Assembly: GCA_013288555.1 (NCBI GenBank)
Contig: JABDBQ010000010.1
Coordinates: 2,030-66,029 of the forward strand
Source of the DNA: Bacteroidota bacterium
GTDB lineage: Bacteria; Bacteroidota; Bacteroidia; CAILMK01
DNA: 64,000 bases
Reading direction: 5' to 3'
Below the pieces are notes generated by a model. The model ran no database searches. It worked only from the letters and a program-made list of their open reading frames with translations, and was not told the origin of the DNA. Below, one piece after another: positions 14,307-31,830 of this stretch. Position numbers and translations under genes: made by a program. How positions within the stretch are numbered: position 1 is the stretch's first letter; each line of letters begins with the position of its first letter.

Positions 14307-14343
14307 AATGAGGCAATTTGAAAATGAATTTCATTGCCTCATT
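14307..14343. terminator. Hairpin between convergent genes (11-bp perfect stem AATGAGGCAAT / ATTGCCTCATT, 15-nt loop)
   Basis: Arms at 14307-14317 and 14333-14343. The right arm overlaps the stop codon of the minus-strand ORF ending at 14339. There is no strong U-tract, so terminator function is inferred. Confidence 0.5.
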
Positions 14344-15790
14344 GTCTTATTGGCTCATTTTCAAATAGTTTTTCAATTTCATTTAGTAACCAGATGGCGT
14401 TGACAACGTTTTTGGTTTCGATCACCGTTTGCTTCAAGGCTTTGATTTTATTATTGTTGTGCCTGCGCTCATAAGGCAGCATGATTTTATACACAAAGGC
14501 TTTCCGGGCAAATTTCAGCAGGTTGCTATATGTATCAAAAGTATCGGTTGAAATAAGTTTGTTCCTGCTGAGATAGGCTTTGAATGTGGTAATTAATGCA
14601 AAAAAAGACTCTTCCTCATCCAGTTCAAAATAGATTTTGAGCAGCATGGACTTAGAATCCAGGTTATAGTAAACGTCCTTAAAATCAACAGATTGCAATA
14701 AGCGGGTTGCTTTTTTATATTCCCTGGTTTCGTAATAATAGTTGGCCAGGTTATACGTATAGGCGTTTTCACGAACTTCTCCGGGCAATTCCGGTTTCAG
14801 CTCATTAATGATCTTATAGGTCCACTCATGATCTCCCAAACGCAAAGCAATAGAAACCATGTTTTTCAAATCCCACTGCAGGTTTTTGTTATTTGCCTTC
14901 ATAAGCCCTATCTCATGCATATATTTATATATATCAAGCAATTCATTGTAAAACTTTGACACACCGCTGTTTACTTTCCTTATACAATAGTTTTGAAGGT
15001 ATCCGTATAGAGACCGTTGTTCGTCCTGTTCAAAAAGTTGAATATGCTTAGTAACGTCATCTTTCAAAACATTAAAATGCTCCATATTATTGGGGTCCTT
15101 GAGCATAACCAGAATACGGTAATAAATTGAAATGGAAGGTATTACGGTATACTTTTCAAAATTTAATTTTACGATTTCCAATAACTCATCCAGCATGTTA
15201 AATTCATAATCTATGGCCAGAATGCGTTTCCGGTTCATCATTTCACAACTGTCCCTGAGTTTGGCAGATAAATAAAAGATATCCAGCTGATCCACTTTTT
15301 TCTGAAGGCTTTCATCCCCTTGTATTCTCGCCTGATCAAGGAAAATTTTATCAGCCTCCGCCTGGTACTGGAATTCTTCATAATAATAATTGCTGTCACG
15401 ATATGGCTTTTGACTGCTCATTTCCAGAATATCTTTTTGGACAACAGAATACAACTCTTCCAGTTGATTGACTCTGATATAATTGAGGAGGTTAAGTTTT
15501 TGATTCCATTGCTGTTCTGTATATTGTTCTTCGCTCAGAAACGTCTCCATTAATCGCAGAGATTTATACATCAGATCAGGAATTCTGCGCTCTTCGAAAA
15601 TTTTACCCGGGTAAAGTTTTGAATAGATCTCTTCTTTCGAAACATTGAATTTTCCCGGACAAATCAATTTTACAAAGCCTGTAATCTCCTCATTTTTATT
15701 AAAATATGGCGATTGCAAAAAGTCAAGAAACCTTAATTGCTGCTGCTTATTCAGCTTTTGAAGCGTTTTATAAAATTTGCTCTGTTCCAT
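14339..15790 (-). CDS. Uncharacterised all-alpha TPR-like cytoplasmic protein (partner A of giant T9SS protein)
   Basis: 483 aa with no signal peptide or TM segment, colinear with paralog 20617-22065. Shared blocks include SPYFNKNEE, KLNLLNYIRVN, FYLSAKLRDSCEMMNRKRIL, DEQRSLYGYLQNYCIRKVNSG and FKDVYYNLDSKSMLLKIYFE. TPR-like NLANYYYET...KKAT. Confidence 0.75.
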   Translation of the reverse strand: MEQSKFYKTLQKLNKQQQLRFLDFLQSPYFNKNEEITGFVKLICPGKFNVSKEEIYSKLYPGKIFEERRIPDLMYKSLRLMETFLSEEQYTEQQWNQKLNLLNYIRVNQLEELYSVVQKDILEMSSQKPYRDSNYYYEEFQYQAEADKIFLDQARIQGDESLQKKVDQLDIFYLSAKLRDSCEMMNRKRILAIDYEFNMLDELLEIVKLNFEKYTVIPSISIYYRILVMLKDPNNMEHFNVLKDDVTKHIQLFEQDEQRSLYGYLQNYCIRKVNSGVSKFYNELLDIYKYMHEIGLMKANNKNLQWDLKNMVSIALRLGDHEWTYKIINELKPELPGEVRENAYTYNLANYYYETREYKKATRLLQSVDFKDVYYNLDSKSMLLKIYFELDEEESFFALITTFKAYLSRNKLISTDTFDTYSNLLKFARKAFVYKIMLPYERRHNNNKIKALKQTVIETKNVVNAIWLLNEIEKLFENEPIRQ

Positions 15791-15952
15791 AAAACAAATA
15801 TAACAATTTTGTGTAATTTTTCAAAATATCATACTTTTTGTAACTTTCATATTATTCATTTTCAATATTTTAATCTTTTTAATCTTTTAATTTTTTAATA
15901 ATGTATTTGTAAACATGAAAATAATGTGTTTTTTCTTCGCTTTCACATTGCA

Positions 15953-15960
15953 AATCTTTG
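15953..15960 (+). promoter_or_regulatory. Candidate Bacteroidota -7 box (AATCTTTG, 7/8 to TAnnTTTG), 26 nt before the ATG
   Basis: Identical octamer at identical spacing upstream of the paralogous gene (22223-22230). It is part of a conserved block, AATCTTTGTATCATGAATTAWTCTAAATG. Confidence 0.3.
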
Positions 15961-15978
15961 TATCATGAATTAATCTAA

Positions 15979-18900
15979 ATGAAAACAACTAACTTTTCAC
16001 TCAATATGAAAGCACAAATCAACCCCACCCGGGCTCGCAGGTTTCAATTAAATCTAGCAGCCATCCTGCTTTTAATTATTCTCTTTAATGGCTTCAAAAC
16101 CCATGGCCAAAAAGTCAAAAACTTTGCCGCCAATCAGCCCTTCCTTTTTGAAGAAAACAAAGGACAGCTAATGGATGAATCCGGGAATACACTTTCAGAC
16201 ATTAAATACTATGGAAAACAGGGAGATGTATACGTATACTGCAAACCCGGCATGTTGAGTTTTGTTTTCACAAAGATTGAAAAGCAAGCAAATGATGTTT
16301 CCGAGGCAACAGGTATGGAAACGGGATCCCCCTTTGGAAAGCATGTCCCGACTTATTCGGGAGGGGCAGGGGGATTTAAGCGCTCTTCCCACGCCGCACT
16401 CCACGCTTCTGTTTCCACTTCACGAATGGACCTCGTTCTCCTTGGCTCCAATCCCACCCCGTTAATCTCCGCCACAGACCAACAGGAATATTATGAAAAT
16501 TTCTATATCAGTGGGGATGCCAATCGCGAAATCACGAATGTACACACCTATAAAAAAGTTATTTATAAAAACATATATCCGAATATCGACATGCTGCTCA
16601 ATATTGCCAATAAAGGCATGGAATATTCCTTTTTGGTACACCCAGGCGGAAAGGTGAATAATATAAAATTGAGATGGGATGGAGCTGAGAAAGAAGAAGC
16701 TCTAAAAAATGGCGGTATCAAATATGCCAATATTTCGGGAAGCATGGAAGAGAGTGCACCGAAGAGTTTTGTGGATGGGAAAACAATTCAGAGCAGGTTT
16801 TTTAAGGACGGAACTCAGTTCAGTTTTAGAGTAGAAAATTATGATAAGAAAAAAGATTTATTAATTGATCCAACATTAGAATGGGCGACGTATTATGGGG
16901 GGAGTAATATTGATGGATCAAATTGCGTATCAGTTGATAAATTAGGGAATATTGCCATTTGTGGTACTACGGTATCAACATCCGGTATTGCTACTACTGG
17001 ATCATTTCAGTCAACATATTTATATTATTCAGGAGGGTCTGCATATGACGCATTTATTGCCACATTCAGTAACGATGGAAAAAGGCGCTGGGCAACATAT
17101 TATGGATCCTATTTTTCGACTTATGGTCTAATGGGACTAGCATTTGACGGATCCGGAAATGTATATCTTGGAGGAAGTACCGATCAACAAAGCAATATTG
17201 CAACTTCTGGCGCTTACCAAACAACAACAAATTATCAGGATGCGTATCTGGTTAAGTTTGATACTAGTGGTTACAGGCTGTGGGGAACATATTTCGGCGG
17301 AAATTATATTACAAATCTTACAGGAGTTGCTACGGATTCCTCAAATAATGTGTATATAACCGGATTAACCAGAAGTACTACTAATATAGCTACAAATGGG
17401 GCCTATCAAACTTCCATGGCAGGAGGGACAAGTTATGGTGATGCTTTTTTGGCAAAATTCAGCTCAAGCGGTTCAATAATCTGGTCGACCTATTTTGGCG
17501 GTTCCAGCGATGACCTGCCATTTTCAGTGTCAGTTGACAGACTTCAGAATATTTATATAACAGGTCAAACTTCCAGTACAAATGGTATTGCTACATCGGG
17601 GGCTTATAGAACTTATTACAATGGAGGTAATCAATGCGATGGCTTTTTAACAAAATTTAATACAAATGGAGGATTGACCTGGTCTACTTATTTTGGTGGA
17701 CTCGGCTCTGAAGGGGCCGGATTTAAAACTGCAATTGATCGCATTGGCAATATTTATTTAACAGGAATTGCAACAAATTCAGGTTTAGCTACTAGCGGCG
17801 CTTTCAAAACTAATTTCAGCGGCAATGGTGAAGGATTTTTAGCAAAATTTAATACTTCAGGTTACCCCAAATGGGTAACCTATTATGATGGAGGGATTGA
17901 AGGCGTGGTAGTAGATGACACAGGAAACATCTTTATAACAGGCGGAACCCAGAGCACAACCGGAATGACTACGAAATATGCATATCAATCCACACCAACC
18001 AACTTATATCTTGCGCAATTTGACAGCTCGGGCTCGCGACTTTGGGGAACTTATTATGGTTGGGTTGGCACTCCAAATTATGATGAAGTTTTTGGAATTG
18101 CCTGTGACAAATGGAACCATATTTATATTACTGGATTTACAACCAATTCATCAGGGATTTCAACTAAGTATAGTTATCAGCCGTCATATGGAGGGGGCGA
18201 GGATGCATTCTTAGCCAGATTCAAGCTTTGGGCTCATAATGATGCTGGGATAGATTCAATTCAAATCCCAAATGTTAACTGTGCTGATAGCTATCAGGTA
18301 AAAGTAGTATTAAAAAATTACGGATTAAATCCCCTGAAAAAGGTTAACATTCGATTGGATATTAATAGCGATTCATCAAAAACATACCCATGGACCGGAA
18401 ATTTGCAAATGGATAGTTCCGCTTTTGTCAACATGGGATATTTCAATTTTAAACCAGGTAAAGATTCAGTTCGTGTATGGACATCAATGCCCAATGGAGT
18501 TATTGATTCTATTCCACAAAATGATTCTGCGATGGTTATTGCTACTGTTAATTCTTTACCGAATGCTTACACCAGAGGCAATCTTACAATTTGTCAGGGG
18601 CCAGACAGTATTCCCATAGGAACAACATCAATTACCGGCCATACTTATTTGTGGACTTCCAAACCTTCGGGCTTTACCTCAAATATTGATGATCCATTTG
18701 TTAAACCAACAAAAACAACTACATATTACTTAACAGAAACGATTACTGCGACGGGATGTTCTGCTACAGATTCCTCAGTAATATCCGTTAATCCTATACC
18801 AACTGCAAATGCTGGAAAAAGCCGATCAATTTGCTATGGTTATGTTGATACCCTTGGCTCATCCGATGTACCGGGTGATACTTACGCATGGTTCGAATAT

Positions 18901-20535
18901 AATAAAGGGAATATATCTTCTTTAAGCAATCCTATAGTTAAACCAACTAAGACAACGAGGTATTACTTATTTGTAACTAATACCTATTCATGTGCTGATT
19001 CAGACTCAGTGACAATTACTGTCAACCCATTACCAACAGCAAATGCCGGTAAAGACACTTTGATATGTGCAGGAGATTCAGTTCAGTTAGGCGCCGAAAG
19101 TATAACAGGAGATAGTTATTCCTGGTCGGTGGGTCCGGATTCCGAATATAGCTCAACTCTTTCAAATCCTGTTGTTTATCCATTAAAACCCACAACCTAT
19201 TATCTCAGCGTAACAAATGTAAATACGGGCTGTAAAGGAAAAGCGACCGTTTCAGTGAAAGTTAACCCGATACCTTATGCAGATATTTATACTACTGATA
19301 GTGTTTTTTGCCTGTCAGATTCACTTACAGTTTATGACTCTGATACACAGTCAGTTTCTCATAAGTGGTACTTTGGAGATGGTGTTTCTGACACTGGTAA
19401 ATATCCGGCAAAGCATCATTACAAATCAGGAGGTGTATACCATATCTGGCTAAAAGTCACAAATACAACAGGTTGTTCTGATTCATCAGAAAAGACTATC
19501 TATGTTGATGGCTCCTGCGTCTGGCCAGGTGATGCCAACTACGATAAAGTGGATAACATCTATGATCTCCTTGCTATAGGTATTGCCTACAACGATACAG
19601 GAAGCAAAAGAACTGATACGACTACCCAATGGTATGCACATCCCTGCGTAGACTGGACTAAAAGTTTTAAATCGGGGGCAAACCACAAACATGCAGACTG
19701 CAACGGTGATGGAAAAGTAGACAGCCTGGACATGGCTGCCATTGTTAGGAATTACAGCAAATCACATTCAAAATCAGGTGGTTCCATCACCAGTGGCAAC
19801 CCTAATGATCCAGAACTGTCTTTATCGATTTCAAAAGACAGTGTGGGCACTTCGGATACTATATCTATAGAGATGAATCTCGGTACAGCCTCAAAATCCC
19901 TTAGCAACATATACGGTATCGCCTTAACAGTCACTTATGATCCGGTAAATACAGGCCGTGCCAAAAGTTTTTCAGCTGATTTTTCAAATTGCTGGATGGG
20001 AACAGTTGGTAAAAACCTGGTCTATCTTATTCATAATGATTCGATAAATGGTGTTATGGATATTGGTATTACCAGGACAGATCATAAGAACATATCAGGT
20101 TATGGTGAAATTGGTAAACTCACGATCATTATGCCGGATAATGTAGGTGGCAAAAGATTAATCAGGAAAGAATTACGATTTGGTTTGGAGAATATCAAGG
20201 CTATTGATAATGTGGAAGATGATATATCATTGTATACAGTTGGGGATTCCGTATTATTTTATGGCTATTCGAGTGGGATAGCGCCTCTAACCAATACTGA
20301 TAATAATATACGTCTCTATCCCAACCCTGCCCAGTCCACGCTGCACTTAGATGCTGGAAAAGAATTAATTTCTGAAATCGGTATATCAGATATGCTGGGC
20401 AGAAATGTAATGACACTCAAATACAACCAGGTAGGGCAAACAGATATGAATATCGGCCGCCTTATTCCGGGTACTTATTTTATATATATTCTTACAGATC
20501 ATGGTTTTGCACGTTCGAGGTTTGTAAAAGAATAA
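15979..20535 (+). CDS. Giant secreted surface protein 1: N-terminal domain + SBBP beta-propeller repeats + CARDB-like + 3 Ig-like modules + PKD + dockerin-like + cohesin-like + T9SS C-terminal sorting domain
   Basis: 1518 aa. Signal anchor LAAILLLIILF. QPFLFEENKGQ N-domain. About 10 repeats of the type GIATSGAYQT...GG.DAFLAKF..SG...W(S/A)TY(F/Y)GG. NDAGI...KNYG (CARDB-like). PTANAGKD..IC.GDS...Y.W modules. YFGDG...GVYHIWLKVTNTTGCSDS (PKD). GDANYDKVDNIYD and DCNGDGKVDSLD loops. C-terminal LYPNPAQSTLHLD...GTYFIYILTD (T9SS type A CTD). Confidence 0.85.
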   Translation: MKTTNFSLNMKAQINPTRARRFQLNLAAILLLIILFNGFKTHGQKVKNFAANQPFLFEENKGQLMDESGNTLSDIKYYGKQGDVYVYCKPGMLSFVFTKIEKQANDVSEATGMETGSPFGKHVPTYSGGAGGFKRSSHAALHASVSTSRMDLVLLGSNPTPLISATDQQEYYENFYISGDANREITNVHTYKKVIYKNIYPNIDMLLNIANKGMEYSFLVHPGGKVNNIKLRWDGAEKEEALKNGGIKYANISGSMEESAPKSFVDGKTIQSRFFKDGTQFSFRVENYDKKKDLLIDPTLEWATYYGGSNIDGSNCVSVDKLGNIAICGTTVSTSGIATTGSFQSTYLYYSGGSAYDAFIATFSNDGKRRWATYYGSYFSTYGLMGLAFDGSGNVYLGGSTDQQSNIATSGAYQTTTNYQDAYLVKFDTSGYRLWGTYFGGNYITNLTGVATDSSNNVYITGLTRSTTNIATNGAYQTSMAGGTSYGDAFLAKFSSSGSIIWSTYFGGSSDDLPFSVSVDRLQNIYITGQTSSTNGIATSGAYRTYYNGGNQCDGFLTKFNTNGGLTWSTYFGGLGSEGAGFKTAIDRIGNIYLTGIATNSGLATSGAFKTNFSGNGEGFLAKFNTSGYPKWVTYYDGGIEGVVVDDTGNIFITGGTQSTTGMTTKYAYQSTPTNLYLAQFDSSGSRLWGTYYGWVGTPNYDEVFGIACDKWNHIYITGFTTNSSGISTKYSYQPSYGGGEDAFLARFKLWAHNDAGIDSIQIPNVNCADSYQVKVVLKNYGLNPLKKVNIRLDINSDSSKTYPWTGNLQMDSSAFVNMGYFNFKPGKDSVRVWTSMPNGVIDSIPQNDSAMVIATVNSLPNAYTRGNLTICQGPDSIPIGTTSITGHTYLWTSKPSGFTSNIDDPFVKPTKTTTYYLTETITATGCSATDSSVISVNPIPTANAGKSRSICYGYVDTLGSSDVPGDTYAWFEYNKGNISSLSNPIVKPTKTTRYYLFVTNTYSCADSDSVTITVNPLPTANAGKDTLICAGDSVQLGAESITGDSYSWSVGPDSEYSSTLSNPVVYPLKPTTYYLSVTNVNTGCKGKATVSVKVNPIPYADIYTTDSVFCLSDSLTVYDSDTQSVSHKWYFGDGVSDTGKYPAKHHYKSGGVYHIWLKVTNTTGCSDSSEKTIYVDGSCVWPGDANYDKVDNIYDLLAIGIAYNDTGSKRTDTTTQWYAHPCVDWTKSFKSGANHKHADCNGDGKVDSLDMAAIVRNYSKSHSKSGGSITSGNPNDPELSLSISKDSVGTSDTISIEMNLGTASKSLSNIYGIALTVTYDPVNTGRAKSFSADFSNCWMGTVGKNLVYLIHNDSINGVMDIGITRTDHKNISGYGEIGKLTIIMPDNVGGKRLIRKELRFGLENIKAIDNVEDDISLYTVGDSVLFYGYSSGIAPLTNTDNNIRLYPNPAQSTLHLDAGKELISEIGISDMLGRNVMTLKYNQVGQTDMNIGRLIPGTYFIYILTDHGFARSRFVKE
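16324..16377 (+). repeat. Nested palindromic element embedded in-frame in giant gene 1
   Basis: GGATCCCCCTTTGGAAAG-CATGTCCCGACTTATTCGGGA-GGGGCAGGGGGATTT. The same element occurs intergenically at 31662-31716 (opposite orientation) and, without the inner 21-nt hairpin, at 58566-58601. Here it encodes ...GSPFGKHVPTYSGGAGGFK... Confidence 0.8.
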
Positions 20536-20567
20536 TTCCTTCCTCCTTTCTTTCATTCTTTCTTTTT

Positions 20568-20601
20568 AAAGGGAATGCCTCCCCCGGCATTCCCTTTTTT
20601 C
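20568..20601. terminator. Rho-independent-type terminator hairpin
   Basis: AAAGGGAATGCC-tccccc-GGCATTCCCTTT followed by a T run. It sits between convergent genes (giant gene 1 and ORF 20617-22065). Confidence 0.8.
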
Positions 20602-20616
20602 TGCAATTGACCCAAT

Positions 20617-22065
20617 TTATTGGGCATCTTCCATCAATTTATCCGTTTCTTTTAAAAGCCAGGCAAGATTGATTACATTTTTCGAACGGGTCAGTTTGTC
20701 ATTCAATGTCCTGATTTTATGAGAACTATGCCTGCGTTGATAGGGAAGCATCGTCTTGAATACAAATGCTTTCCTGGCAAATTTTAAAAGATTGCTGTAA
20801 GCCAGATGGGTATCTGTTGAAATCAACCTGTTTCTGGTGAGAAAAACCTGAAAAGTATTGACAAGGGCAAAAAATGCTTCTTCTTCATCCTGCTCAAAGT
20901 ATATTTTCAGTAGCATCGATTTGGAATCCAGGTTATAATACACGTCTTTAAAATCGACAGAATGAAGAAGAAGGGTCGCTTTTCTGAAATTTTTGGTTTC
21001 GTAATAATAATTGGCAAGATTATATGCGTATGCATTTTCAGACACCTCTTCGGGCAGCCTTGTTTTCAAAGTTTCGACAATGTCTAACGCCCTCTCGTAT
21101 TTGCCAAGTCGCAAAGCCACCGAAACCATGTTCTTAAGTTCCCATTGCAGATTTTTATTATCAGGGTCCATAAGCCCGATAAGCAGCATATGCTCATAGA
21201 TATCAAACAATTCACTATAAAATGCCGCAGCACCGCTGTTTACTTTTCGTATGCAGTAATTTTGAAGATAGCCGTACAGCGAACGTTGTTCGTCCTGGGG
21301 AAATAACCCGATGTTTTGCTGAAATTCTTCCTGCAGCTTTCTGAAATGCCCGGTATCTTCCGGTTCCCTGAGCATGAGCAGGATTCTGAAATATACTGAG
21401 ATGGCAGGATAATCTTTATATCTCTCAAAATCAGCCTTAATGGCTTCAATAAGGTTATTGAGCAGGTGAAATTCATAGTCAATGCTAAGAATCCTTTTTC
21501 GGTTCATCATTTCACAACTGTCTCTCAGCTTTGCCGAGAGATAAAAAAGATCAAGCCTGTCCACTTTTTTCTGGAGGTTTTCATCTCCTTTGATCTGTGC
21601 CTGGTCGAGAAAAATTTTATAGGCCTCCGACTGGTACATGAATTCCTCATAAAAATAATTACTATCCCTGAACTGCTTTTTAGAACTTAACTCCTGTATC
21701 TCCCGCTGCACCACGCTGTTAAGATCTTCCAGTTCATTTACTCTTATGTAATTAAGCAGATTCAATTTGCGATCCCATGTTTGTGTAGCGTATTGTTCTT
21801 CAGTCAAAAATTCTTCGAGCAGCTTGAGTGATTTGTACAAAAGATCATGCAACCTTCTCGCATCAAATGGCTTACCGGGATATAAAAATTCATAGATTTT
21901 TTTTGGATCATGACTTGCTTTGCCTTGCCGGATCAATGCAACAAATTGCCGAACCTCCTCATTTTTATTAAAATATGGAGAATTTAGAAACTCGATATAC
22001 CGCCTTTGACTGACTTTATCCAGTTTGTCATACGTTTTAATAAATTTACTCTGGTCCATATCCAA
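20617..22065 (-). CDS. Uncharacterised all-alpha TPR-like cytoplasmic protein (partner B, paralog of 14339-15790)
   Basis: 482 aa. Colinear with 14339-15790 and roughly two-thirds identical by eye. Same divergent arrangement with a giant T9SS gene. Confidence 0.75.
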   Translation of the reverse strand: MDMDQSKFIKTYDKLDKVSQRRYIEFLNSPYFNKNEEVRQFVALIRQGKASHDPKKIYEFLYPGKPFDARRLHDLLYKSLKLLEEFLTEEQYATQTWDRKLNLLNYIRVNELEDLNSVVQREIQELSSKKQFRDSNYFYEEFMYQSEAYKIFLDQAQIKGDENLQKKVDRLDLFYLSAKLRDSCEMMNRKRILSIDYEFHLLNNLIEAIKADFERYKDYPAISVYFRILLMLREPEDTGHFRKLQEEFQQNIGLFPQDEQRSLYGYLQNYCIRKVNSGAAAFYSELFDIYEHMLLIGLMDPDNKNLQWELKNMVSVALRLGKYERALDIVETLKTRLPEEVSENAYAYNLANYYYETKNFRKATLLLHSVDFKDVYYNLDSKSMLLKIYFEQDEEEAFFALVNTFQVFLTRNRLISTDTHLAYSNLLKFARKAFVFKTMLPYQRRHSSHKIRTLNDKLTRSKNVINLAWLLKETDKLMEDAQ

Positions 22066-22222
22066 AGATATAAAATATTTGTAAACTAACTCACTAAATG
22101 TACAAAATATTTTTGTATTATATTTATTTTCAATGTTATAATATTTACATTCCCTTAAAAATAGTAAAATTTATAATTGTATATGCTATTAAATTGTGTT
22201 TTTATTTCGGATTCATAGTCCC

Positions 22223-22230
22223 AATCTTTG
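22223..22230 (+). promoter_or_regulatory. Candidate -7 box (AATCTTTG), 26 nt before the ATG of giant gene 2
   Basis: Same octamer and spacing as 15953-15960. Confidence 0.3.
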
Positions 22231-22248
22231 TATCATGAATTATTCTAA

Positions 22249-25200
22249 ATGAAAACAACTAACTTTTCACTCAATATGAAAGCGCATATCAAAATCAACC
22301 CTGCCGACAGATTTCATTCAATTCTGAAGGTAGTCCTGTTTCTGATTCTTTTACTTAAAGGATTACAAACCGAGGCTCAATCCGTTAAAAACTTTGCTAC
22401 TACCCAGCCCTTCTTATTCGAAGAAAACAAAGGACAGCTTAGGGATGAAAACGGGAATGCGCTTTCAGATATCAAATATTATGGAAAACAGGGAGGTGTA
22501 TATATATACTGCAAACCTGGCATGCTGAGTTTCGTATTCACCAAGTCAGAAAAAGAGCCAAATGATATTTCAGAGGCAACTGGGATGCCTGTTTCAGACC
22601 TAGGGGTTCACAATCCTGAATCCATACACGGAAATCAGCGCTCTCCGCTCTCCGCTCTTCGCACTTCTATCACCGCCTCCCGTATGGACCTCGTTCTCCT
22701 CAACTCCAACCCCAATCCTTTAATCACCGCCTCAGACCAACAGGAATATTTTGAAAACTTCTATACCATCGGAGATGCAGATCATGGCATCACCAATGTA
22801 CACACCTATAAAACCCTTATATACAAAAATATATACCCGAATATTGACATGCTGCTCAATGTTGCTGAAAAGGGAATGGAATATTCTTTTTTAGTACACC
22901 CCGGCGGAAATGTGAGCGATATTAAACTGAGATGGAATGGCGCAGAGAAAGAAGAAGCATTGAAAAATGGCGGAATAAAATATGCTAATATGTTGGGGAG
23001 CATGGAAGAAAGTGCACCAAAGAGTTTTGCGGATGGGAAAATGATACAAACAAGTATTTTCAAGGAAGCAAAACAATTCAGTTTTAAAGTAGGACGATAT
23101 AATAAGGGAAAAAAACTATTAATTGACCCCACATTGGTCTGGGCTACGTATATCGGTGGACCCAATTCAAATGCTGGTGGAATAAAGTTAGATGCCGCAG
23201 GAAATTTATACATTGCAGGCACTACAACCCTCGACAACTATTTAACTACCTCTGGTGCATACCAAACATCTTATGGTGGGAATAATGATATTTTCCTTGC
23301 AAAGTTTAGCAACGACGGAAAGCGTCTATGGGCTAGTTATTATGGCGGTTCTGATCAGGATCTTGGTGCTGATTTGAATCTGGATATTCATGGAAATATT
23401 TATATTACTGGAAATACTAAAAGCAGTAATGGTATTGCTACTTCTGGCGCATTTAAAACTTCGTATCCCGGAGGATGGTACGATCCGTTTCTTGCAAAAT
23501 TTAGCAATTCGGGCAATCTGATCTGGGCAACTTATTTTGGAGGCTCCAACTATGATGAATCTGCAAGCGTTGGAACCGACTCTTCTGGGAATGTATATAT
23601 TGGAGGCTGGGCAAGCAGCACTAGTGGGATAGCAACATCTGGTGCACAGCAGACTTATCCTCAAGGAGGGGCAGACGCTTTTCTCGCAAAATTTAATAGT
23701 TCTGGCAGTTTAACATGGGCCACGTATTATGGAGGTTCTGGGCAGGATTATTTATATGGAATGAGCACAGATGCTAAAGGCAATTGTTATTTGACAGGCA
23801 CCACAACTAGTAGTAGTGGAATTGCATTTTCGGGATTTCAAAGCAATTATTATGGCGATACTGATTTTAATGGTACTGTTACTTATGGTGGTGATGCCTT
23901 TCTGGCAAAATTTAATAGCTCTGGACGTCTCCAATGGGGAACATATTACGGTGGGAGCGGTGGCGATGATGCTTCAGGTGTGACGACTGACACTAAAGGA
24001 AACGTTTATATAACAGGCTCAACCACCAGTTTAGGCCGAATTGCAACTACAGGTGCTTTTCAAACTTCGCGAAGTGGGGATGCAGATGGTTTTCTAGTTA
24101 AATTTAACAGCTCCGGGTCACGAATTTGGGGAACATATTATGGAGGTAACTGGAATGCTAACTTAGGCGGAATATCTTTGGACTCAAAGGGTAATATTTA
24201 TTGCACAGGATCAACAAATAGTGATAGTGGAATCGCGACAGTAGGAGCATATGAGACTTCAAATAAATCAGGTCACCAAGATATAATTCTTGCGAAATTC
24301 AACAATACCGGGAACCGCATCTGGGCGACTTATTTAGGAGGAAATGGTACTGATGATGCAGGTGAATCGGTAATCGATTCATCAGGTAATCTTTATTTTA
24401 CAGGTTCTAGTCAAAGTACTGACTTAGCAACTTATAATGCATATCAATCCAATATTGAAACTTTTGGTAATTATTTCGGCATAATAGCAAAATTTACACT
24501 TAATACATATCAAAATGACGCAGGCATTTTGCCAACTCTTGATTCTGTTTCATTTTGTAAAACGCAAAATATATTTGTCCGCCTGAAAAATTTCGGCGGT
24601 AAAGACCTTGATTCAGTCAAAGTTGGTTTATCTATTAATCATAAATTTCAAACTAAATATAATTGGACGGGGAAATTGAAACCTGATAGTACAGTTATTG
24701 TTGATATCGGGAGTTTTTCATTCAATACCGGTCATGATACTGTAATTGCCTGGACTTTGAAACCCAATGGATTATTAGATTCACTTCAGGGTAATGATAC
24801 AGCAATTATCAGTCTTACTCAGAAAGCAAATGCTGGCGGCAACTTTACAATTTGTAGTGGTGGTTCTATTAGAATAGGTTCAAATCCTATAAGCGGCCGT
24901 TCATATTCATGGACTTCAATTCCTGCCGGTTTTACGTCTACAATAAGTGATCCCTATGTAAACCCTCATAAGAATACAACTTATTATCTAATTGAGACGA
25001 TTAATGCCACAGGATGTTCCGATACAGATTCATCGTCAGTTGTTTTATTACCGAATGCAAGAGCAAGTTTTTCCTACAAAACCGGATGTGTTGGAGAAAC
25101 TACAATTTTTATAGATTCGAGCTCATTAGCAAAATCCTATTTTTGGTATTTTGGTGATCATTCTGGTTCCTCTGATTCAAGTATGCATCTTTTACATTTG

Positions 25201-26550
25201 TACAATGATACAGGAACTTATTCTGTTTTTTTGAAGGTGACTAATTCTGACGGTTGTTCTGATTCAATTTCAAAAAATATTACACCCAGACCAAAACCTA
25301 AAGCAGAATATTCTTTTAATAATGTTTGTCCGGGTGATAGTATATCTTTTGTAAATAAAAGCTCAAAATCAAATTCCTATTATTGGGATTTTGGAGACGG
25401 AACATCTTCAACCGATTCAACTCCACCAAAACACTTATATTCGAAATTGGGATCTTATGATGTAAGTTTGGTAGTTATTAATTCAGCTAATTGTGCGGAT
25501 TCAATTTCAAAAACGGTTATGATTTCTCCCTGCGTCTGGCCGGGGGATGCCAACTATGATAAAGTTGATAATATCTATGACCTCCTTGCTATTGGAATCG
25601 CTTATAACGATACTGGCTTTAAAAGAACAGATACCACCACGCAATGGTATGCCCATCCCTGTATGGATTGGAGCAAAAATTTTAAATCGGGTGCAAACCA
25701 CAAACATGCTGATTGTAACGGCGATGGAAAAGTGGATAGCCTTGATATGGCTGCCATCGTAAGGAATTACAGCAAATCACATTCAAAGTCTGGTGGTTCG
25801 ATTACAAGCGGCAACCCAAATGATCCTGCTTTATCTTTATCGATTTCCAAAGACAGTGTTGGCACATCTGATACCATCACTGTACAAATGAATCTCGGGA
25901 CGGCCACGAAAAGCATGAGCAATATTTATGGAATCTGCTATACTGTGACGTATGATCCGGTAAATGTCGGCCGTGCCAAAAGCTTTTCAGCAGATTTTTC
26001 AAATTGCTGGATGGGAACAGTCGGTAAAAACCTGGTCTATCTTGTTCATAACGATTCGGTAAATGGGGTTATGGATATCGGCATAACCAGGACAGATCAT
26101 AAGAATGTATCGGGCTATGGCGAAATTGGTAAACTAACCATTATTACACCCGATAATGTGGGTGGCAAAAGGTTAATCAGGAAAGAACTACGCTTCGGCT
26201 TAGAGAATATCAAAGCCATTGATAATGTGGAAGATGATGTATCATTATATATAGTTGGGGATTCCGTATTATTTTATGGCTATTCAGCTGGTATAGCACC
26301 TCAAACTAATATTGATAATAATATACATCTCTATCCCAACCCTGCACAATCCACAATGCACATAGACGCAGGAAAGGAACTGATTTCTGAAATCGGGATA
26401 TCAGATATCCTGGGTAGAAAAGTAATGACCCTGAAACATGATCAGGTCCGGCAAACAGATATGAACATCAGCAGCCTTATTCCGGGCACTTATTTTATAT
26501 ATATTCTTACAGATCATGGTTTTGCACGTTCGAGATTTGTGAAAGATTAA
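22249..26550 (+). CDS. Giant secreted surface protein 2 (SBBP repeats + CARDB-like + 1 Ig-like module + 3 PKD + dockerin-like + cohesin-like + T9SS CTD)
   Basis: 1433 aa. The N-terminal ~290 aa and C-terminal 339 aa are colinear with gene 1. The centre is divergent, with three PKD-like units (FGDHSG...VFLKVTNSDGCSDS; WDFGDGTSS...VSLVVINSANCADS). Confidence 0.85.
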   Translation: MKTTNFSLNMKAHIKINPADRFHSILKVVLFLILLLKGLQTEAQSVKNFATTQPFLFEENKGQLRDENGNALSDIKYYGKQGGVYIYCKPGMLSFVFTKSEKEPNDISEATGMPVSDLGVHNPESIHGNQRSPLSALRTSITASRMDLVLLNSNPNPLITASDQQEYFENFYTIGDADHGITNVHTYKTLIYKNIYPNIDMLLNVAEKGMEYSFLVHPGGNVSDIKLRWNGAEKEEALKNGGIKYANMLGSMEESAPKSFADGKMIQTSIFKEAKQFSFKVGRYNKGKKLLIDPTLVWATYIGGPNSNAGGIKLDAAGNLYIAGTTTLDNYLTTSGAYQTSYGGNNDIFLAKFSNDGKRLWASYYGGSDQDLGADLNLDIHGNIYITGNTKSSNGIATSGAFKTSYPGGWYDPFLAKFSNSGNLIWATYFGGSNYDESASVGTDSSGNVYIGGWASSTSGIATSGAQQTYPQGGADAFLAKFNSSGSLTWATYYGGSGQDYLYGMSTDAKGNCYLTGTTTSSSGIAFSGFQSNYYGDTDFNGTVTYGGDAFLAKFNSSGRLQWGTYYGGSGGDDASGVTTDTKGNVYITGSTTSLGRIATTGAFQTSRSGDADGFLVKFNSSGSRIWGTYYGGNWNANLGGISLDSKGNIYCTGSTNSDSGIATVGAYETSNKSGHQDIILAKFNNTGNRIWATYLGGNGTDDAGESVIDSSGNLYFTGSSQSTDLATYNAYQSNIETFGNYFGIIAKFTLNTYQNDAGILPTLDSVSFCKTQNIFVRLKNFGGKDLDSVKVGLSINHKFQTKYNWTGKLKPDSTVIVDIGSFSFNTGHDTVIAWTLKPNGLLDSLQGNDTAIISLTQKANAGGNFTICSGGSIRIGSNPISGRSYSWTSIPAGFTSTISDPYVNPHKNTTYYLIETINATGCSDTDSSSVVLLPNARASFSYKTGCVGETTIFIDSSSLAKSYFWYFGDHSGSSDSSMHLLHLYNDTGTYSVFLKVTNSDGCSDSISKNITPRPKPKAEYSFNNVCPGDSISFVNKSSKSNSYYWDFGDGTSSTDSTPPKHLYSKLGSYDVSLVVINSANCADSISKTVMISPCVWPGDANYDKVDNIYDLLAIGIAYNDTGFKRTDTTTQWYAHPCMDWSKNFKSGANHKHADCNGDGKVDSLDMAAIVRNYSKSHSKSGGSITSGNPNDPALSLSISKDSVGTSDTITVQMNLGTATKSMSNIYGICYTVTYDPVNVGRAKSFSADFSNCWMGTVGKNLVYLVHNDSVNGVMDIGITRTDHKNVSGYGEIGKLTIITPDNVGGKRLIRKELRFGLENIKAIDNVEDDVSLYIVGDSVLFYGYSAGIAPQTNIDNNIHLYPNPAQSTMHIDAGKELISEIGISDILGRKVMTLKHDQVRQTDMNISSLIPGTYFIYILTDHGFARSRFVKD

Positions 26551-26629
26551 TTCCGGTTTTTTACACATCAAGACAACAAATTTTTGGACATGAATTATCT
26601 AAACAAAACCATCTAACTTTTCACTCTTT

Positions 26630-29600
26630 ATGAAAGTACAAATCAACCCCACCCTGGCACACAGGTTTCATTTAAATCTAATAGCCATTTTGTTATTAGC
26701 TGTTCTTTTTAATGCCTTCAATTCACAGGCGCAAAAGGTTAAAAACTTCAATACTTCTCAGCCATTCCTCTTTGAAGAGAACAAGGGACAACTGATGGAT
26801 GAAAGCGGGAATGCGCTTAGTGATATTAAATATTATGGAAAGCAGGGAGGTGTATATGTGTATTGCAAGTCCGGCATGTTGAGTTTTGTTTTCACAAAGA
26901 TTGAAAAGGGACAAGATGATGTTTCCGAGGCAACAGGTATGGAAACGGAATCCCCCTTTGGAAAGCATGTCCCGACTTATTCGGGAGGGGCAGGGGGATT
27001 TAAGCGCTCTTCGCTCTCCGCTCTTCACACTTCTATCACTGCCTCCCGCATGGACCTCGTTCTCCTTGGCTCCAACCCCACCCCTTCAATCACCGCCACT
27101 GACCAGCAGGAATACTATGAAAACTTCTACACCGGCGGAGATGCGAACCATGGCATCACCAATGTACACACCTATAAAACCCTTACCTATAAAAACATAT
27201 ACCCGAATATTGATATGAATCTGAATGTTGCCAAAAATGGTATTGAATATTCCTTTTTAGTCCATCCCGGAGGCAATGTAAGCGATATAAAATTGCGATG
27301 GAATGGGGCTGAGAAAGAAGAAGCACTGAAAAATGGAGGGATTAAATATGCCAATACGTTGGGAACATTGGAAGAGAGTGCGCCAAAGAGTTTTGTGGAA
27401 GGGAAATTGGTGAAAAGCATATCTGTTAAAAAAGGATTGGAATATAGTTTTGAGGTTGGAGGCTATGATAAAAGAAAAGATTTGGTTATAGATCCGAGTT
27501 TAGTTTGGGGGACCTATTTTGGAGGGTCAACTGAAGAACTAATATATGGAATTACAACTGATAACTTAAAAAATATATATATTATCGGTGAATCTACCAG
27601 CAAAACTGGAATTACAACCACTGGCGCATTTGAAACAAGTACTCCGAGTACTAATAATGGTGCAGTGCTTTTGGCAAAATTTAATGAGAACGGAACACCA
27701 GCATGGGTAACATACTATGCCGGCAACTCTCAAGATTGGGGTCTTGCAATAACTACTGATTATTTAGGGAACCTTTATTTTACGGGCTATACGTACAGTA
27801 GTTCTGGAATTGCAACTAATGGCACTTATCAAACTTCAACCGTAGGAAATGGGTACTCGGATGTGTTTATTGCAAAGTTTAGTACAGATGGAATTCGTAA
27901 GTGGGGCACATATTTTGGAGGGGCAGGAGACGAATTTGGATTTGATATAAAGATGGACGGACATTCTAATCTGTACGTTACAGGAAAAACCAATAGTAAA
28001 TCTAACATTGCAACCAAAGGAGCATTTCAAACCAGTTTTTCAGGAAAGATTGACGCTTTTCTAGCGCGGTTCGATTCAAGCGGTAATTTGAATTGGGCGA
28101 CATATTTTGGTGCTGATAGTACAATTGGTGAAAAAATAGTTTCAGACTTATCAGGAAATGTTTTTCTGTCAGGAGTAACGGATAGTAACAGTGTTATTGC
28201 AACAAAAGGCGCATATCAGACTTCATATGGTGGAGGTAGAAATGATGCATTCATAGCTAAATTCAATAAAAACGGAAATAGAATATGGTCAACATATTTT
28301 GGAGGCAATTGCTGGGAGAGTTTTAATTCTTCTCAAGGAATTGTCGCTGATAAAAAGGGACATTTATATCTAAGCGGTGGGACATGCAGTCAGACAGGAA
28401 TTGCAACTGCTGGCGCATACCAAACCTCAATAGGGGGGGAAATGATGTTTATCTGGCTAAATTCGATACTAGTGGGAAAATAATATGGAGCACTTATTTT
28501 GGGGGACCGAACGCAGATGATGGATCCAATATTATTTTAGATTCATTTAATAATATTTATATTTCAGGATACACTCAAAGTACTTCGGGTATAGCAACAA
28601 CCGATGCATTTCAACCAACATATAGCAGTGGCTATAACAACACCTTTATTGCAAAATTTGATAATAATGGCTCAAGATTATGGGCTTCCTATTATGGTTT
28701 TAGCTGGTGTTATGGAATTGTCTGGTTAAATGATTATCAAATTTTAATCGCTGGATATGCGACAAATACCCCAGGAATCGCTACATCAGGTGCATTTCAA
28801 ACAAAATCAAAAGGCACTTGGAATGGTTTTATTGCGGATATAAATTTTAAAGTCAATAATGATGCAGGCATAAGTTCAATACCTTCCTCTAAAGGTGTTT
28901 TTTGTGGGAATTCTCAACAATTGAAGATATCATTAAAAAATTATGGTAATCATGAATTGGATTCCGTAAAAATTGGATGGTCGGTTAACAGCAAAGTTGT
29001 ATCATCGTATGCCTGGACTGGCAAGTTAAAATCAGACAGTTCAATTTCCGTAACTCTCGGCAGTTTTAAATTCCCAAATGGAACTGACACCATAAAAGTC
29101 TGGACCTATAACCCAAATGGCACTACCGATTCGACTCCGCAGAATGATTCCTCCTTTGCAATTATTACAGTCAATCCTACCCCATCCGCCAATGCGGGAA
29201 AAAACAGATCGGTATGCTTTGGAGTTATGGATACTATTGGCTCTTCATCAGTACCTAACGATGCTTATTTCTGGACTTCAAATCCAACAAGTGTAATTGG
29301 TTCGGTTAGCAATCCAGTAGTTAGTCCTGCTGTCACAACAACTTATTATCTCTACGAAACCAATTCATACGCATGTGTTGGTAAAGACTCAGTAACACTA
29401 ACTGTTAACCCATTGCCAACAGCAAATGCCGGAAAAGACACATTGGTTTGCTTTGGTGATTCGGTTTTTCTTGGCACTAAACCAGATACAGGTTATTCAT
29501 ACAGTTGGTCTTCAAGCCCTTCAGGTTTTAGGTCTATCCTTGCAAATCCCCGCCTAGTTCCAAAGTCCAGCGCTGCATATTATCTCTCGATTACTTCCAA

Positions 29601-30915
29601 TAGTACCGGCTGCACCGGGCTTGATACTGCATATGGTTCCGTCAACCCTCTGCCCCATGCCAGATTTTCAGTATCCGATACTCTTTTTTGTACACAGGAT
29701 TCGCTTGGTTTAATAGATTCATCAACCGGTGCGGTTTCTTATGTATGGACATTTGGGGATGGGACTACCGATACCGGCAAAAATATTCATAAACATCATT
29801 TTACAAAGACGGGCCCTTATCATATCCGGCTTATTGTTACCAATTCATCAGGGTGTTCAGATTCCACGAAAACCTGGGTGTATCCTGATGGTGACTGCGT
29901 CTGGCCCGGTGATGCCAACTATGATAAGGTTGACAATATTTACGATCTCCTTGCAATTGGTATTGGCTATAATAATAGTGAATATAATAGATTGGATACC
30001 ACCACCCAATGGTATGCGCATCCCTGCGAAGACTGGCATAAAAGCTTCAAATCCGGAACAAATTATAAACATGCGGATTGCAATGGCGATGGAATAATTG
30101 ACAGCCTGGATATAGCCGCCATCATACGGAATTACAGCAAATCACATTCAAAGTCCGGTGGTTCTATTACAAGCGGCAACCCGAATGACCCGGCTCTGTC
30201 TTTATCCATATCCAAAGATAGTGTTGGCACTTCAGATACCATATCTGTACAGATGAATCTCGGGACAGCCTCAAAATCCCTCAGCAATATTTATGGCATC
30301 TGTTATACTGTTACGTATGATCCGGTAAATGTAGGCCGCGCCAAAAGCTTTTCAGCAGATTTTTCGAATTGCTGGATGGGAACAGTTGGTAAAAACCTGG
30401 TCTATCTTGTTCATAACGATTCGGTAAACGGGGTTATGGATATCGGCATAACCAGGACAGATCATAAGAATGTATCAGGGTATGGCGAAATTGGTAAACT
30501 CACCATTATTACACCTGATAATGTGGGCGGCAAAAGGTTAATCAGGAAAGAACTTCGGTTTGGTTTTGAGAACATAAAAGCCATTGATAATGTGGAAGAT
30601 GATGTATCATTATATACAGTGGGAGATTCTGTATTATTTTATGGCTATTCAGCTGGTATAGCACCCCAAACTAATACTGATAGTAATATACATCTCTATC
30701 CCAACCCTGCACAATCCATATTGCACATAGACGCAGGAAAGGAACTGATTTCTGAAATCGGGATATCGGATATCCTGGGTAGAAAAGTGATGACTATGAA
30801 ATATGCTCAGGTCCGGCAAACAGATATGAACATCAATAGCCTTATTCCGGGTACTTATTTTATATATATTTTTACAGATCATGGTTTTGCACGTTCGAGA
30901 TTTGTGAAAGATTAA
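26630..30915 (+). pseudogene. Giant secreted surface protein 3, interrupted by a frameshift in a G7 tract (ORFs 26630-28483 and 28384-30915)
   Basis: The two ORFs are contiguous parts of one paralog. At 28433-28439 (GGGGGGG) the frame changes. With 8 G the reading is ...AYQTSIGGGNDVYLAKFDTSGKIIWSTYFGG, a canonical SBBP repeat, giving one 1428-aa ORF. Confidence 0.8.
26956..27010 (+). repeat. Nested palindromic element embedded in-frame in giant gene 3
   Basis: GGAATCCCCCTTTGGAAAGCATGTCCCGACTTATTCGGGAGGGGCAGGGGGATTT, near-identical to 16324-16377. Gene 2 has unrelated sequence at this position. Confidence 0.8.
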
Positions 30916-30944
30916 TTCCTCCCTTCTTTTCCTCCTTTCTTCTT

Positions 30945-30980
30945 AAAGGGAATGCCTGATTGACGGGTATTCCCTTTTTT
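30945..30980 (+). terminator. Rho-independent-type terminator hairpin after giant gene 3
   Basis: AAAGGGAATGCC...GGGTATTCCCTTT followed by TTTTT. Homologous to the hairpin at 20568-20601. Confidence 0.7.
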
Positions 30981-31360
30981 GTGAAACATTTTTAAAAATA
31001 TTTTTGCTTATAACTAAATGAATATAAATAAGATAAAAAATATTTTTGGAAATCACCCACCCAGTTTGGTACTTCACTATATATGTATATAAAAGGCGTT
31101 AGGCATCAGGAGTTAGGAGTTAGAGGCTGGCGCAAACAAATTGAACAAAATCCTCTTAATTCTAAAATCCTGTAAATCCTGATTCAGAAAAATATGAAAA
31201 AGATAAACCTTTGCTTTTTGGCATTCTCGATTGATCCCGAGTGCTCGGGACTGTTATTGTCTGATATTTGTCAATGAATTACGTGTAAATAACTAAATTT
31301 CAATAAGCTAAAAAATGAAAAAATGAATTTCCCTGTTAAAACAGTGAGAACACGTGTGCC

Positions 31361-31447
31361 GCCTGTCCCGCCTGTCCCGCCTGTCCCGACCTCTTCGGGG
31401 ACCTCTTCGGGGACTTATTCTGGGACTTCTTCGGGGACTTATCCGGG
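31361..31447. repeat. Tandem repeats: 9-mer GCCTGTCCC x3, then 12-mer GACYTNTTCGGG x5
   Basis: 9-mers at 31361-31387 and 12-mers at 31388-31447. The units are the two arms of the CCTGTCCCGA-loop-TCGGGA hairpin element amplified separately. ORF 31323-31517 is just their translation. Confidence 0.85.
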
Positions 31448-31661
31448 AAGCCAGAATGCTCAGAATGGCTTTTCCAAAAAAAACAAAACCGGCATAACAC
31501 TATTTGGCAAAGTGTAACCCCGGTTTAAAACTTAAATATTTCATTATCAATATAATATAAAAAATATTATCAGGCCAAAAACAAGAAAAAATGTTACCCT
31601 TAATGCTTGTTTTAAACAGGATGAAACGGTACGCAGGAAGGGTGCTGTGCTAAAACAAAAA

Positions 31662-31716
31662 TCCCCCTACCCTCCCGAGTAATCGGGACAGGCACTTTGG
31701 AAAGGGGGAATCCCTA
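31662..31716. repeat. Nested palindromic element, intergenic copy (opposite orientation to the copies in the giant genes)
   Basis: TCCCCCTACCCTCCCGAGTAATCGGGACAGGCACTTTGGAAAGGGGGAATCCC. The inner hairpin is TCCCGA-GTAA-TCGGGA at 31673-31688. Confidence 0.8.
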
Positions 31717-31830
31717 CTTTCTCCTCATTTGATAATTTCAACATTGTCTCATTGTTTAATTCCCAATTTCAAGTTTCAAATTACATCTCACTTCTTACTT
31801 CTCACCTCTTACTATTACCTTTGCCCTAAG

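Follow-up and report, generated by a model that had tools for sequence, protein, structure and literature searches.

A divergent two-gene cassette of environmental Bacteroidota pairs a TPR-like cytoplasmic protein, possibly a dedicated regulator, with type IX secretion cargo carrying a dockerin-cohesin module

We analyzed a stretch of 64,000 nucleotides from a Bacteroidota bacterium (assembly GCA_013288555.1, contig JABDBQ010000010.1; hereafter the window, to which all coordinates refer), and in particular the region 14339-30915, where small minus-strand genes stand head-to-head with giant genes encoding surface proteins. In this region, a two-gene cassette that is conserved in environmental Bacteroidota is present twice in tandem. 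The small gene, called A here, encodes a cytoplasmic, all-alpha protein that resembles tetratricopeptide repeat (TPR) proteins and lies outside any characterised family; its divergent partner, B, encodes a predicted type-A cargo of a type IX secretion system (T9SS), with a Sec signal peptide and a type-A sorting domain (TIGR04183 / PF18962) as C-terminal domain (CTD). The cassette is real, ancient and reciprocally linked, and the constant part of B consists of a dockerin-like region, a cohesin-fold domain and the type-A CTD, whereas the N-terminal passenger is freely exchangeable. The explanation that we favor, at a probability of roughly 0.45, is that A, without a known DNA-binding domain, may serve specifically to regulate the expression of the cargo operon beside it. 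The coupling between A and B is apparently undescribed, as a literature search returned neither the pair nor dockerin-cohesin-CTD modules, in line with the remark of the earlier note on this DNA that no such cytoplasmic partner is part of the T9SS paradigm.

The link between the two genes comes from a census of gene neighborhoods. One genome of each GTDB species was scanned by pattern, which gave 47 loci with 21-39% identity in the best aligned segment to A1, the first A protein of the window. These loci came from metagenome-assembled genomes of Chitinophagales, Saprospiraceae, Flavobacteriales/Vicingaceae and Sphingobacteriales, and their open reading frames (ORFs) were newly called and searched with pieces of B1, the giant beside A1, and then with hidden Markov models of the B1 C-terminal region. 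The gene upstream of the A homologue was on the opposite strand in 41 of the 41 loci having one. A cohesin-like module was present in this neighbor in 36 of 40 evaluable cases, compared with 3 of 487 non-adjacent ORFs (Fisher p ~1e-47), and the three background ORFs were all near an A gene. Considering the content of the neighbors, 34 possessed the dockerin-like part, the cohesin-like part and the CTD, 2 the cohesin-like part and the CTD, and 2 the CTD alone; the module gene was one or two ORFs away in 2 loci, one neighbor was cut by the contig end, and the two most remote A homologues had a small lipoprotein-like protein as neighbor. Independent gene calls combined with precomputed Pfam annotation gave the same pairing, and reverse look-ups starting from module proteins found A divergently upstream in both evaluable cases, two others being at contig ends. 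Moreover, when ORFs were clustered over the loci, the A and module families alone recurred and the flanks were unrelated. The functional coupling that the earlier note had proposed is therefore strongly supported by a divergent synteny conserved over four Bacteroidota groups.

The nature of the coupled partner had to be revised. The earlier note considered it to be a giant SBBP beta-propeller protein, and the census upheld the co-location, the divergent orientation and the T9SS CTD but not the SBBP giant, because neighbors elsewhere match only B1 residues ~1176-1515, so that the C-terminal ~335 aa are all that is common across genomes. DUF7948/SBBP matches were restricted to the window among the 47 loci, with the exception of a weak SBBP match on a non-adjacent ORF (L007), and the SBBP propeller was rejected as the coupled partner. 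A close relative fetched separately (L058) has a DUF7948/SBBP giant like those of the window, in which the passenger is composed of DUF7948, an SBBP propeller and Ig/PKD domains. The partner is an Ig/PKD protein in L059 and a 1927-aa protein with the module in L048, and many partners have just ~360 aa, with a signal peptide directly followed by the VWPGD... module; overall, their size ranges from 270 to 1900 aa. The type-A features, namely the Sec signal and the type-A CTD, also hold for the partners at other loci. The ideas that A encodes an immunity protein or belongs to a mobile element were also considered and rejected, as A is constant, the passengers vary and no transposase-like gene is present; a tblastn search of A against 72,556 plasmids gave no match. 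Elsewhere in the window, a 536-aa DUF5689-like protein with a T9SS type-A CTD (59480-61090, minus strand) has neither the dockerin-cohesin unit nor an A neighbor, which ties A to the module and not to every CTD cargo.

The two genes also diverge together. Over 36 pairs, A and module identities co-vary (Pearson 0.81; 0 of 2000 permutations in a Mantel test), with a contribution of shared phylogeny, and same-genome paralogues such as L005 and L029 show ~30% identity in A and in the module, which points to an old duplication as a unit. Together with the homologous spacers described below, this supports the earlier proposal that duplication affected the pair as one unit, and the two genes were also inherited together. 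Tandem arrays of cassettes or module genes were also seen elsewhere (L030, 8601-15610; L010, 7332-9863; and one 28.7-kb contig with P0012, P0014 and P0016), and their recurrence suggests that local amplification is typical of the family. Operons with type-A CTD cargo also lie divergently from the A genes of remote subfamilies (21-31% identity). In the most remote subfamily (21-24%, Saprospiraceae), the divergent partner is a lipoprotein-like protein of ~175-194 aa without a Pfam match (L045, 9354-9875; L047, 9373-9903; L056, 5352-5936; L045 and L047 are 53% identical), and in L047 and L056 the lipoprotein-like gene is followed by a gene for a ~975-aa protein with a T9SS CTD.

The module was aligned over 29 partners and the three giants of the window, B1 to B3. 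In it, two Ca-binding dockerin repeats, VWPGDANNDGxVNxxDLL and ADCNGDGxIxxxDxxAIxxNYG, precede a domain of ~160 aa, which has a cohesin-like YGxAFxxxYD strand and is followed by the CTD. Pfam Dockerin_1 reached 34.6 bits in the L030 partner (cut-off 22.9) and 22.2-22.5 bits, just under the cut-off, in B1 and B2, and PF00963 (Cohesin) was precomputed on two homologues. The AlphaFold2 (AF2) model of B1 residues 1170-1518 (pLDDT 83.6) matched type I/II cohesins in Foldseek with E-values that were mostly 1e-6 to 1e-7 and reached 1e-9, the target-normalised TM-scores being 0.6-0.74. B is thus predicted to have a dockerin domain, with duplicated EF-hand-like Ca-binding loops, and, as modeled, the nine-stranded jelly-roll of the cohesin fold. 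Strong purifying selection acts on the module, which shows a nonsynonymous divergence (dN) of 0.03-0.10 at a synonymous divergence (dS) of 0.5-1.7 (dN/dS ~0.02-0.14); recent gene conversion was rejected as the sole cause of the similarity, as it would not explain such dS values with low dN. Within the window, the modules are 86-92% identical and A1 and A2 65%.

Cellulosomal and non-cellulosomal scaffoldins share with B the cohesin fold and the duplicated dockerin motif. In B, by contrast, dockerin and cohesin form a single ~260-aa unit directly before the T9SS type-A CTD, a long insert separates the two dockerin repeats, no carbohydrate-active enzyme is linked to these loci, and binding between cohesin and dockerin is putative. 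The module would tether its passenger to the surface of the cell by the pathway leading from the CTD to anionic lipopolysaccharide (A-LPS) and would cross-link surface proteins by cohesin-dockerin contacts. Dockerin-cohesin-CTD would be a portable surface-anchoring module with exchangeable passengers, which may form cohesin-dockerin networks at the cell surface.

Turning to A, the earlier note had described two colinear paralogous minus-strand ORFs about two-thirds identical, and the gap-free alignment of A1 and A2 indeed showed 65% identity over 478 residues. Only the start of A2 needed correction: the protein most likely has 480 aa and begins at the ATG at 22059, because the corresponding Met is conserved in the family alignment. 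The A1/A2 pair has a dN of 0.26 and saturated synonymous sites, which indicates that the duplication is old and that both copies were maintained. Also as first described, neither protein has a signal peptide or a hydrophobic segment, the maximal Kyte-Doolittle hydropathy in 19-residue windows being 0.85-0.96 compared with 1.8-1.9 at the N-termini of the giants. The mean net charge of A is only about +3.7. Downstream of A1 and A2, just 50-81 bp follow.

The absence of any characterised family for the small protein held in our searches, as full-length A matched no model of Pfam, NCBIfam or PADLOC, and a Pfam scan of the N-terminal 130 aa of six members, with E-values up to 10, found no helix-turn-helix (HTH) family. 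A Pfam scan of 48 members gave sub-threshold TPR_10, TPR_2 and TPR_1 matches in 13-31 of the 48, corresponding to one motif. The AF2 model, built on a 48-sequence alignment, was of high quality (pLDDT 92.4, pTM 0.82) and contained 25 helices, four of them short and N-terminal, and zero strands; the proposed TPR-like helices, including AYTYNLANYYYETREYKKATRLL, which is found in the translation, are thus in agreement with an all-helical solenoid, along which invariant Asn, Tyr, Arg and Asp residues are numerous. Foldseek against the PDB returned exclusively solenoids of the TPR, pentatricopeptide repeat (PPR) and half-a-TPR (HAT) types, with NprR and Rap of the RRNPP family on top; the lower matches included LGN, PPR proteins and the anti-sigma factor DdvA. 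At the level of the predicted fold, A belongs to the TPR/helical-repeat solenoid superfamily. Profile and structure searches, which the earlier note had suggested for this 482-aa protein, thus led to a TPR-like solenoid with generic fold matches alone.

The family is large. A word-indexed search found 146 relatives, every one named hypothetical, and an exhaustive HMMER search found 12,030 clusters (50% identity) at E <=1e-3, including 6,802 at E <=1e-30. The typical length is 470-490 aa, the best 150 clusters all falling within 445-500 aa, and several contigs have two or three paralogues. Look-ups of the clusters provided neither names nor accessions, and a homologue search with the remote member L047 provided only the names hypothetical or TPR repeat protein, with no domain fusions. 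Almost without exception, and in both directions, members of this very large unannotated family go with type-A cargo bearing a dockerin-cohesin unit, which gives good grounds for a new family annotation of thousands of hypothetical proteins.

The region between the two genes is constrained as well. The earlier note reported head-to-head pairs across a homologous AT-rich spacer of ~185 bp, and we measured 188 and 189 bp, a GC content of 0.18-0.19 and a global alignment score with z = 8.7 compared with shuffles; in the 70 nt adjoining the giant, 55 of 72 alignment columns are identical. A 26-nt block, AATCTTTGTATCATGAATTA[AT]TCTAA, is invariant in five spacers (the two of the window, L058, L059 and L060), the A proteins of which are 65-71% identical, and it reads as a Bacteroidota-type -7 box with the following leader. 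B3 retains the homologous block behind its own -7-like box with its first ATG destroyed, suggesting that B1 and B2 probably start at the second ATG (16006 and 22276), 27 nt later, which would give a conserved leader of ~45 nt before the B genes. A conserved -7-like box with this A/U-rich leader lies upstream of all three giants (15953-16005, 22223-22275 and 26578-26629), and folding of the leader revealed no structure (z from -0.8 to +1.4). On the other side, a perfect TAnnTTTG box ends 3-4 nt short of the A start codon in each of the five spacers, so near that the A mRNA is probably leaderless or nearly so.

Among short words, the 7-mers AAATACA and TTTATCG were enriched in spacers compared with other intergenic regions, the enrichment of TTTATCG being marginal (8 of 37 spacers, 6 of 232 controls). 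A CG-containing motif, TTT[ATG][TC]CG[GA]A, is often found in two equally oriented copies (spacers L001, L008, L009, L013, L017, L018, L023, L027, L028 and L030), one copy by the TTGTATTT element upstream of the partner and the other just before the A start codon. A scan for sigma-70 promoters and terminators gave counts equal to those of shuffles, the model being not applicable to Bacteroidota, and Rfam gave no match over the whole window.

A role of A as a regulator is favored by the strict divergence, by the single A that goes with each cargo array and by the constraint on spacer and leader. When two divergently transcribed genes stay paired in evolution, this is an accepted sign that one regulates the other (Korbel et al. 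2004, as cited in PMC4944035). A would regulate the adjacent cargo operon and probably itself, acting at the shared spacer or on the unstructured leader of B, and the groove of its solenoid, with the invariant polar residues, would bind a ligand, a peptide or a nucleic-acid strand.

Several results weigh against a regulatory role. The main objection is the missing DNA-binding domain: no recognisable DNA- or RNA-binding domain was found in A by Pfam and NCBIfam scans, full-length or N-terminal, which separates it from classical one-component transcription factors (LysR, AraC, TetR). In addition, the mean net charge of A is low, the sole match of A in a profile search against PDB sequences was to designed consensus TPRs, at residues ~332-371, and the Foldseek matches were generic (E of 2e-3 or weaker, query-normalised TM-scores of 0.28-0.37, rmsd of 11-17 A). 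The gap between B2 and B3 holds no A gene, so that B3 has its own promoter-like block yet no A of its own. Finally, the candidate operator motifs (TTGTATTT, TTTATCG) are modestly enriched, are confounded with the -7 box and come from phylogenetically related loci.

The main rival, which we consider unlikely, is that A would be a dedicated cytoplasmic chaperone or targeting factor. By analogy with the class II TPR chaperones of type III secretion, an extended stretch of the nascent module would lie in the TPR groove of A, which would keep the module Sec-competent and avoid premature cohesin-dockerin self-association. Such a role would fit a partner whose one invariant feature is a protein module and not a promoter, and also the co-varying divergence of A and module, the invariant residues disposed along A as in peptide-binding TPR and armadillo (ARM) grooves, and the Pfam scans, in which no nucleic-acid-binding domain was found. 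However, chaperone genes are normally co-directional in the operon of their substrate, whereas the A gene is divergent from its partner in 41 of 41 loci; moreover, one A serves arrays of several cargo genes, B3 being without its own. The lower identity of A1 and A2 compared with the modules of the window also shows that A divergence is not tracking the module locally, and remote A subfamilies pair with non-module neighbors, either the lipoprotein-like protein or a DUF7619 protein. Finally, Sec substrates usually have no need of dedicated TPR chaperones. Class II TPR chaperones of the type III secretion system (SycD, PcrH, IpgC) are likewise cytoplasmic TPR proteins dedicated to particular secreted substrates, but they have ~160 aa and three TPRs, are encoded in the operon of the substrate and serve one-step secretion, whereas A has 480 aa, is divergent and has a partner exported by Sec and T9SS.

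RRNPP systems, known from Firmicutes and their phages, suggest another explanation, by which A would be the receptor of a re-imported peptide derived from the partner, either from a linker or from the cleaved CTD, closing an autoinduction or cell-density loop on the cassette. The cleavage of the CTD is established T9SS biology. We find this improbable, even though NprR and Rap head the Foldseek list, invariant Asn residues are found in the solenoid, and A is cytoplasmic with an invariable neighbor that is secreted and proteolytically processed. Indeed, RRNPP receptors (NprR, PlcR, Rap, PrgX) are cytoplasmic like A, combine a short N-terminal helical region with a long TPR solenoid binding an extended ligand, and are encoded next to the gene of an exported product, as A is. 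Against this, the fold similarity is weak and generic, A has no sequence similarity to RRNPP proteins of the PDB, no RRNPP chain being found in the profile search, and it is ~100-130 aa longer. A also fails two defining RRNPP features, as no HTH was detected and no small pro-peptide ORF adjoins it: the short downstream intervals hold none, and the conserved neighbor is a divergent T9SS surface protein of at least 270 aa (270-1900 aa) with a CTD, in another phylum. No Opp-type importer is linked to the loci, and literature naming both RRNPP and Bacteroidota, judged by titles and abstracts, does not appear to describe such a system.

We give little credence to a last explanation, that A acts in the cytoplasm for a post-export need of the module (supply of an anchor or ligand, or modification) or that the two genes have no direct functional link and are merely co-inherited through a shared bidirectional promoter. 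No domain of A proves regulation or chaperoning, and its invariant polar residues could just as well make up a site for catalysis or ligand binding. However, the fold is a repeat solenoid without an enzyme-like match, and the phylum-wide, reciprocal adjacency of two genes in fixed orientation, both under strong purifying selection, would be difficult to account for without direct coupling.

To our knowledge, current accounts of T9SS cargo call for no more than a Sec signal, a CTD and the common machinery, and we know of dedicated cargo partners only for type-B CTDs, namely the PorP/SprF-like proteins. Such a protein, for example SprF with SprB, is a cargo-specific accessory factor encoded beside the T9SS cargo gene (PMC9143113). 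PorP/SprF-like proteins are outer-membrane beta-barrels, usually co-directional with their type-B cargo, in contrast with A, which is cytoplasmic, all-alpha and divergent from type-A cargo. PorX/PorY/SigP regulation (PMC7712824 and PMC12152298) has a T9SS-linked input in which the CTD protein PorA takes part. That regulation relies on a two-component system and an extracytoplasmic function (ECF) sigma factor acting on machinery genes, is unrelated to A in sequence and fold and is not encoded beside each cargo gene. For environmental Bacteroidota, the A-B pair offers a concrete and testable candidate for a control of surface display that is specific to the cargo. More tentatively, A proteins could be a new, Bacteroidota-specific class of cytoplasmic solenoids serving an unrecognised cargo-specific T9SS step, either as a new type of regulator reading the spacer DNA or leader RNA of each cassette or as escorts, before Sec, of self-associating dockerin-cohesin-CTD modules. 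If true, thousands of lineages would have a dedicated partner for type-A CTD cargo.

The features of the region are collected in Table 1.

Table 1. Features of the two cassettes and of the third giant gene, in window coordinates
Feature	Position	Strand	Description
A1	14339..15790	-	483-aa cytoplasmic TPR-like solenoid, member of a new family (ORF, no domain-library match, AF2, Foldseek)
A1 -7 box	15795-15802	-	TATATTTG (reverse complement CAAATATA); ends 4 nt before the A1 ATG
Spacer 1	15791..15978		188 bp, divergent promoter region, GC 0.18
Spacer 1, giant side	15953-15972		-7-like box and leader, AATCTTTGTATCATGAATTA
Spacer 1, giant side	15925-15933		TGTGTTTTT
B1	15979..20535	+	1518-aa T9SS cargo with signal peptide and SBBP/Ig/PKD middle; likely start at the second ATG, 16006
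B1 DUF7948	16147-16875		
B1 dockerin-like	19513-19773		
B1 cohesin-fold	19816-20283		
B1 type-A CTD	20311-20532		
A2	20617..22059	-	480-aa A1 paralogue; the TTG-extended listed ORF reaches 22065
A2 -7 box	22063-22070	-	TATCTTTG (reverse complement CAAAGATA); ends 3 nt before the A2 ATG
Spacer 2	22060..22248		189 bp, homologous to spacer 1
Spacer 2, giant side	22223-22242		AATCTTTGTATCATGAATTA
Spacer 2, giant side	22195-22203		TGTGTTTTT
B2	22249..26550	+	1433-aa T9SS cargo, SBBP/PKD middle
B2 DUF7948	22417-23133		
B2 dockerin-like	25528-25788		
B2 cohesin-fold	25831-26298		
B2 CTD	26329-26547		
B2-B3 gap	26551..26629		79 bp
B2-B3 gap, box and leader	26578-26597		own -7-like box and leader AAATTTTTGGACATGAATTA, homologous to the B1/B2 leaders
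B3	26630..30915	+	third paralogue in two ORFs, 26630-28483 and 28384-30915
B3 DUF7948	26771-27496		
G7 homopolymer	28433..28439	+	B3 frame switch from +1 to +3, placed by tblastn with B2
B3 dockerin-like	29893-30153		
B3 cohesin-fold	30196-30663		
B3 CTD	30694-30912		

The prediction that the first two giants are secreted agrees with their hydrophobic N-termini and Por_Secre_tail domains. B1 and B2 carry DUF7948, SBBP, Ig_7/PKD and Por_Secre_tail, the last being above the cut-off in B1, B2 and B3, and the N-termini of the three are hydrophobic. Their identities are mosaic, with 51-90% in the DUF7948 region, 20-57% in the SBBP/Ig middle (one window of 71%) and 71-98% in the module. The third giant proved to be a paralogue as proposed, but not a single intact gene, as it is split into two ORFs by a frameshift at a run of seven G. 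The frame switch at this run may be due to a pseudogene mutation, to an error in sequencing the homopolymer or to slipped-strand phase variation of a surface protein.

Concerning the remaining genes of the window, a 523-aa protein encoded on the minus strand (39174-40745) is made of 12 WG-containing beta-repeats (PF14903, E = 2e-135), and the other surroundings are housekeeping genes, such as those for GlyRS, Dpp7, HisRS, histidine ammonia-lyase, Lgt and pyruvate carboxylase. The 813 bp following B3 (30916-31728) are gene-free and contain G+C-rich tandem repeats, TGTCCCGCC x3.8 (31355-31388) and GACTTCTTCGGG x4.4 (31388-31447), as well as hairpins resembling repetitive extragenic palindromic (REP) elements, one being TCCCGAGTGCTCGGGA at 31235-31250 and a similar one lying near 31670.

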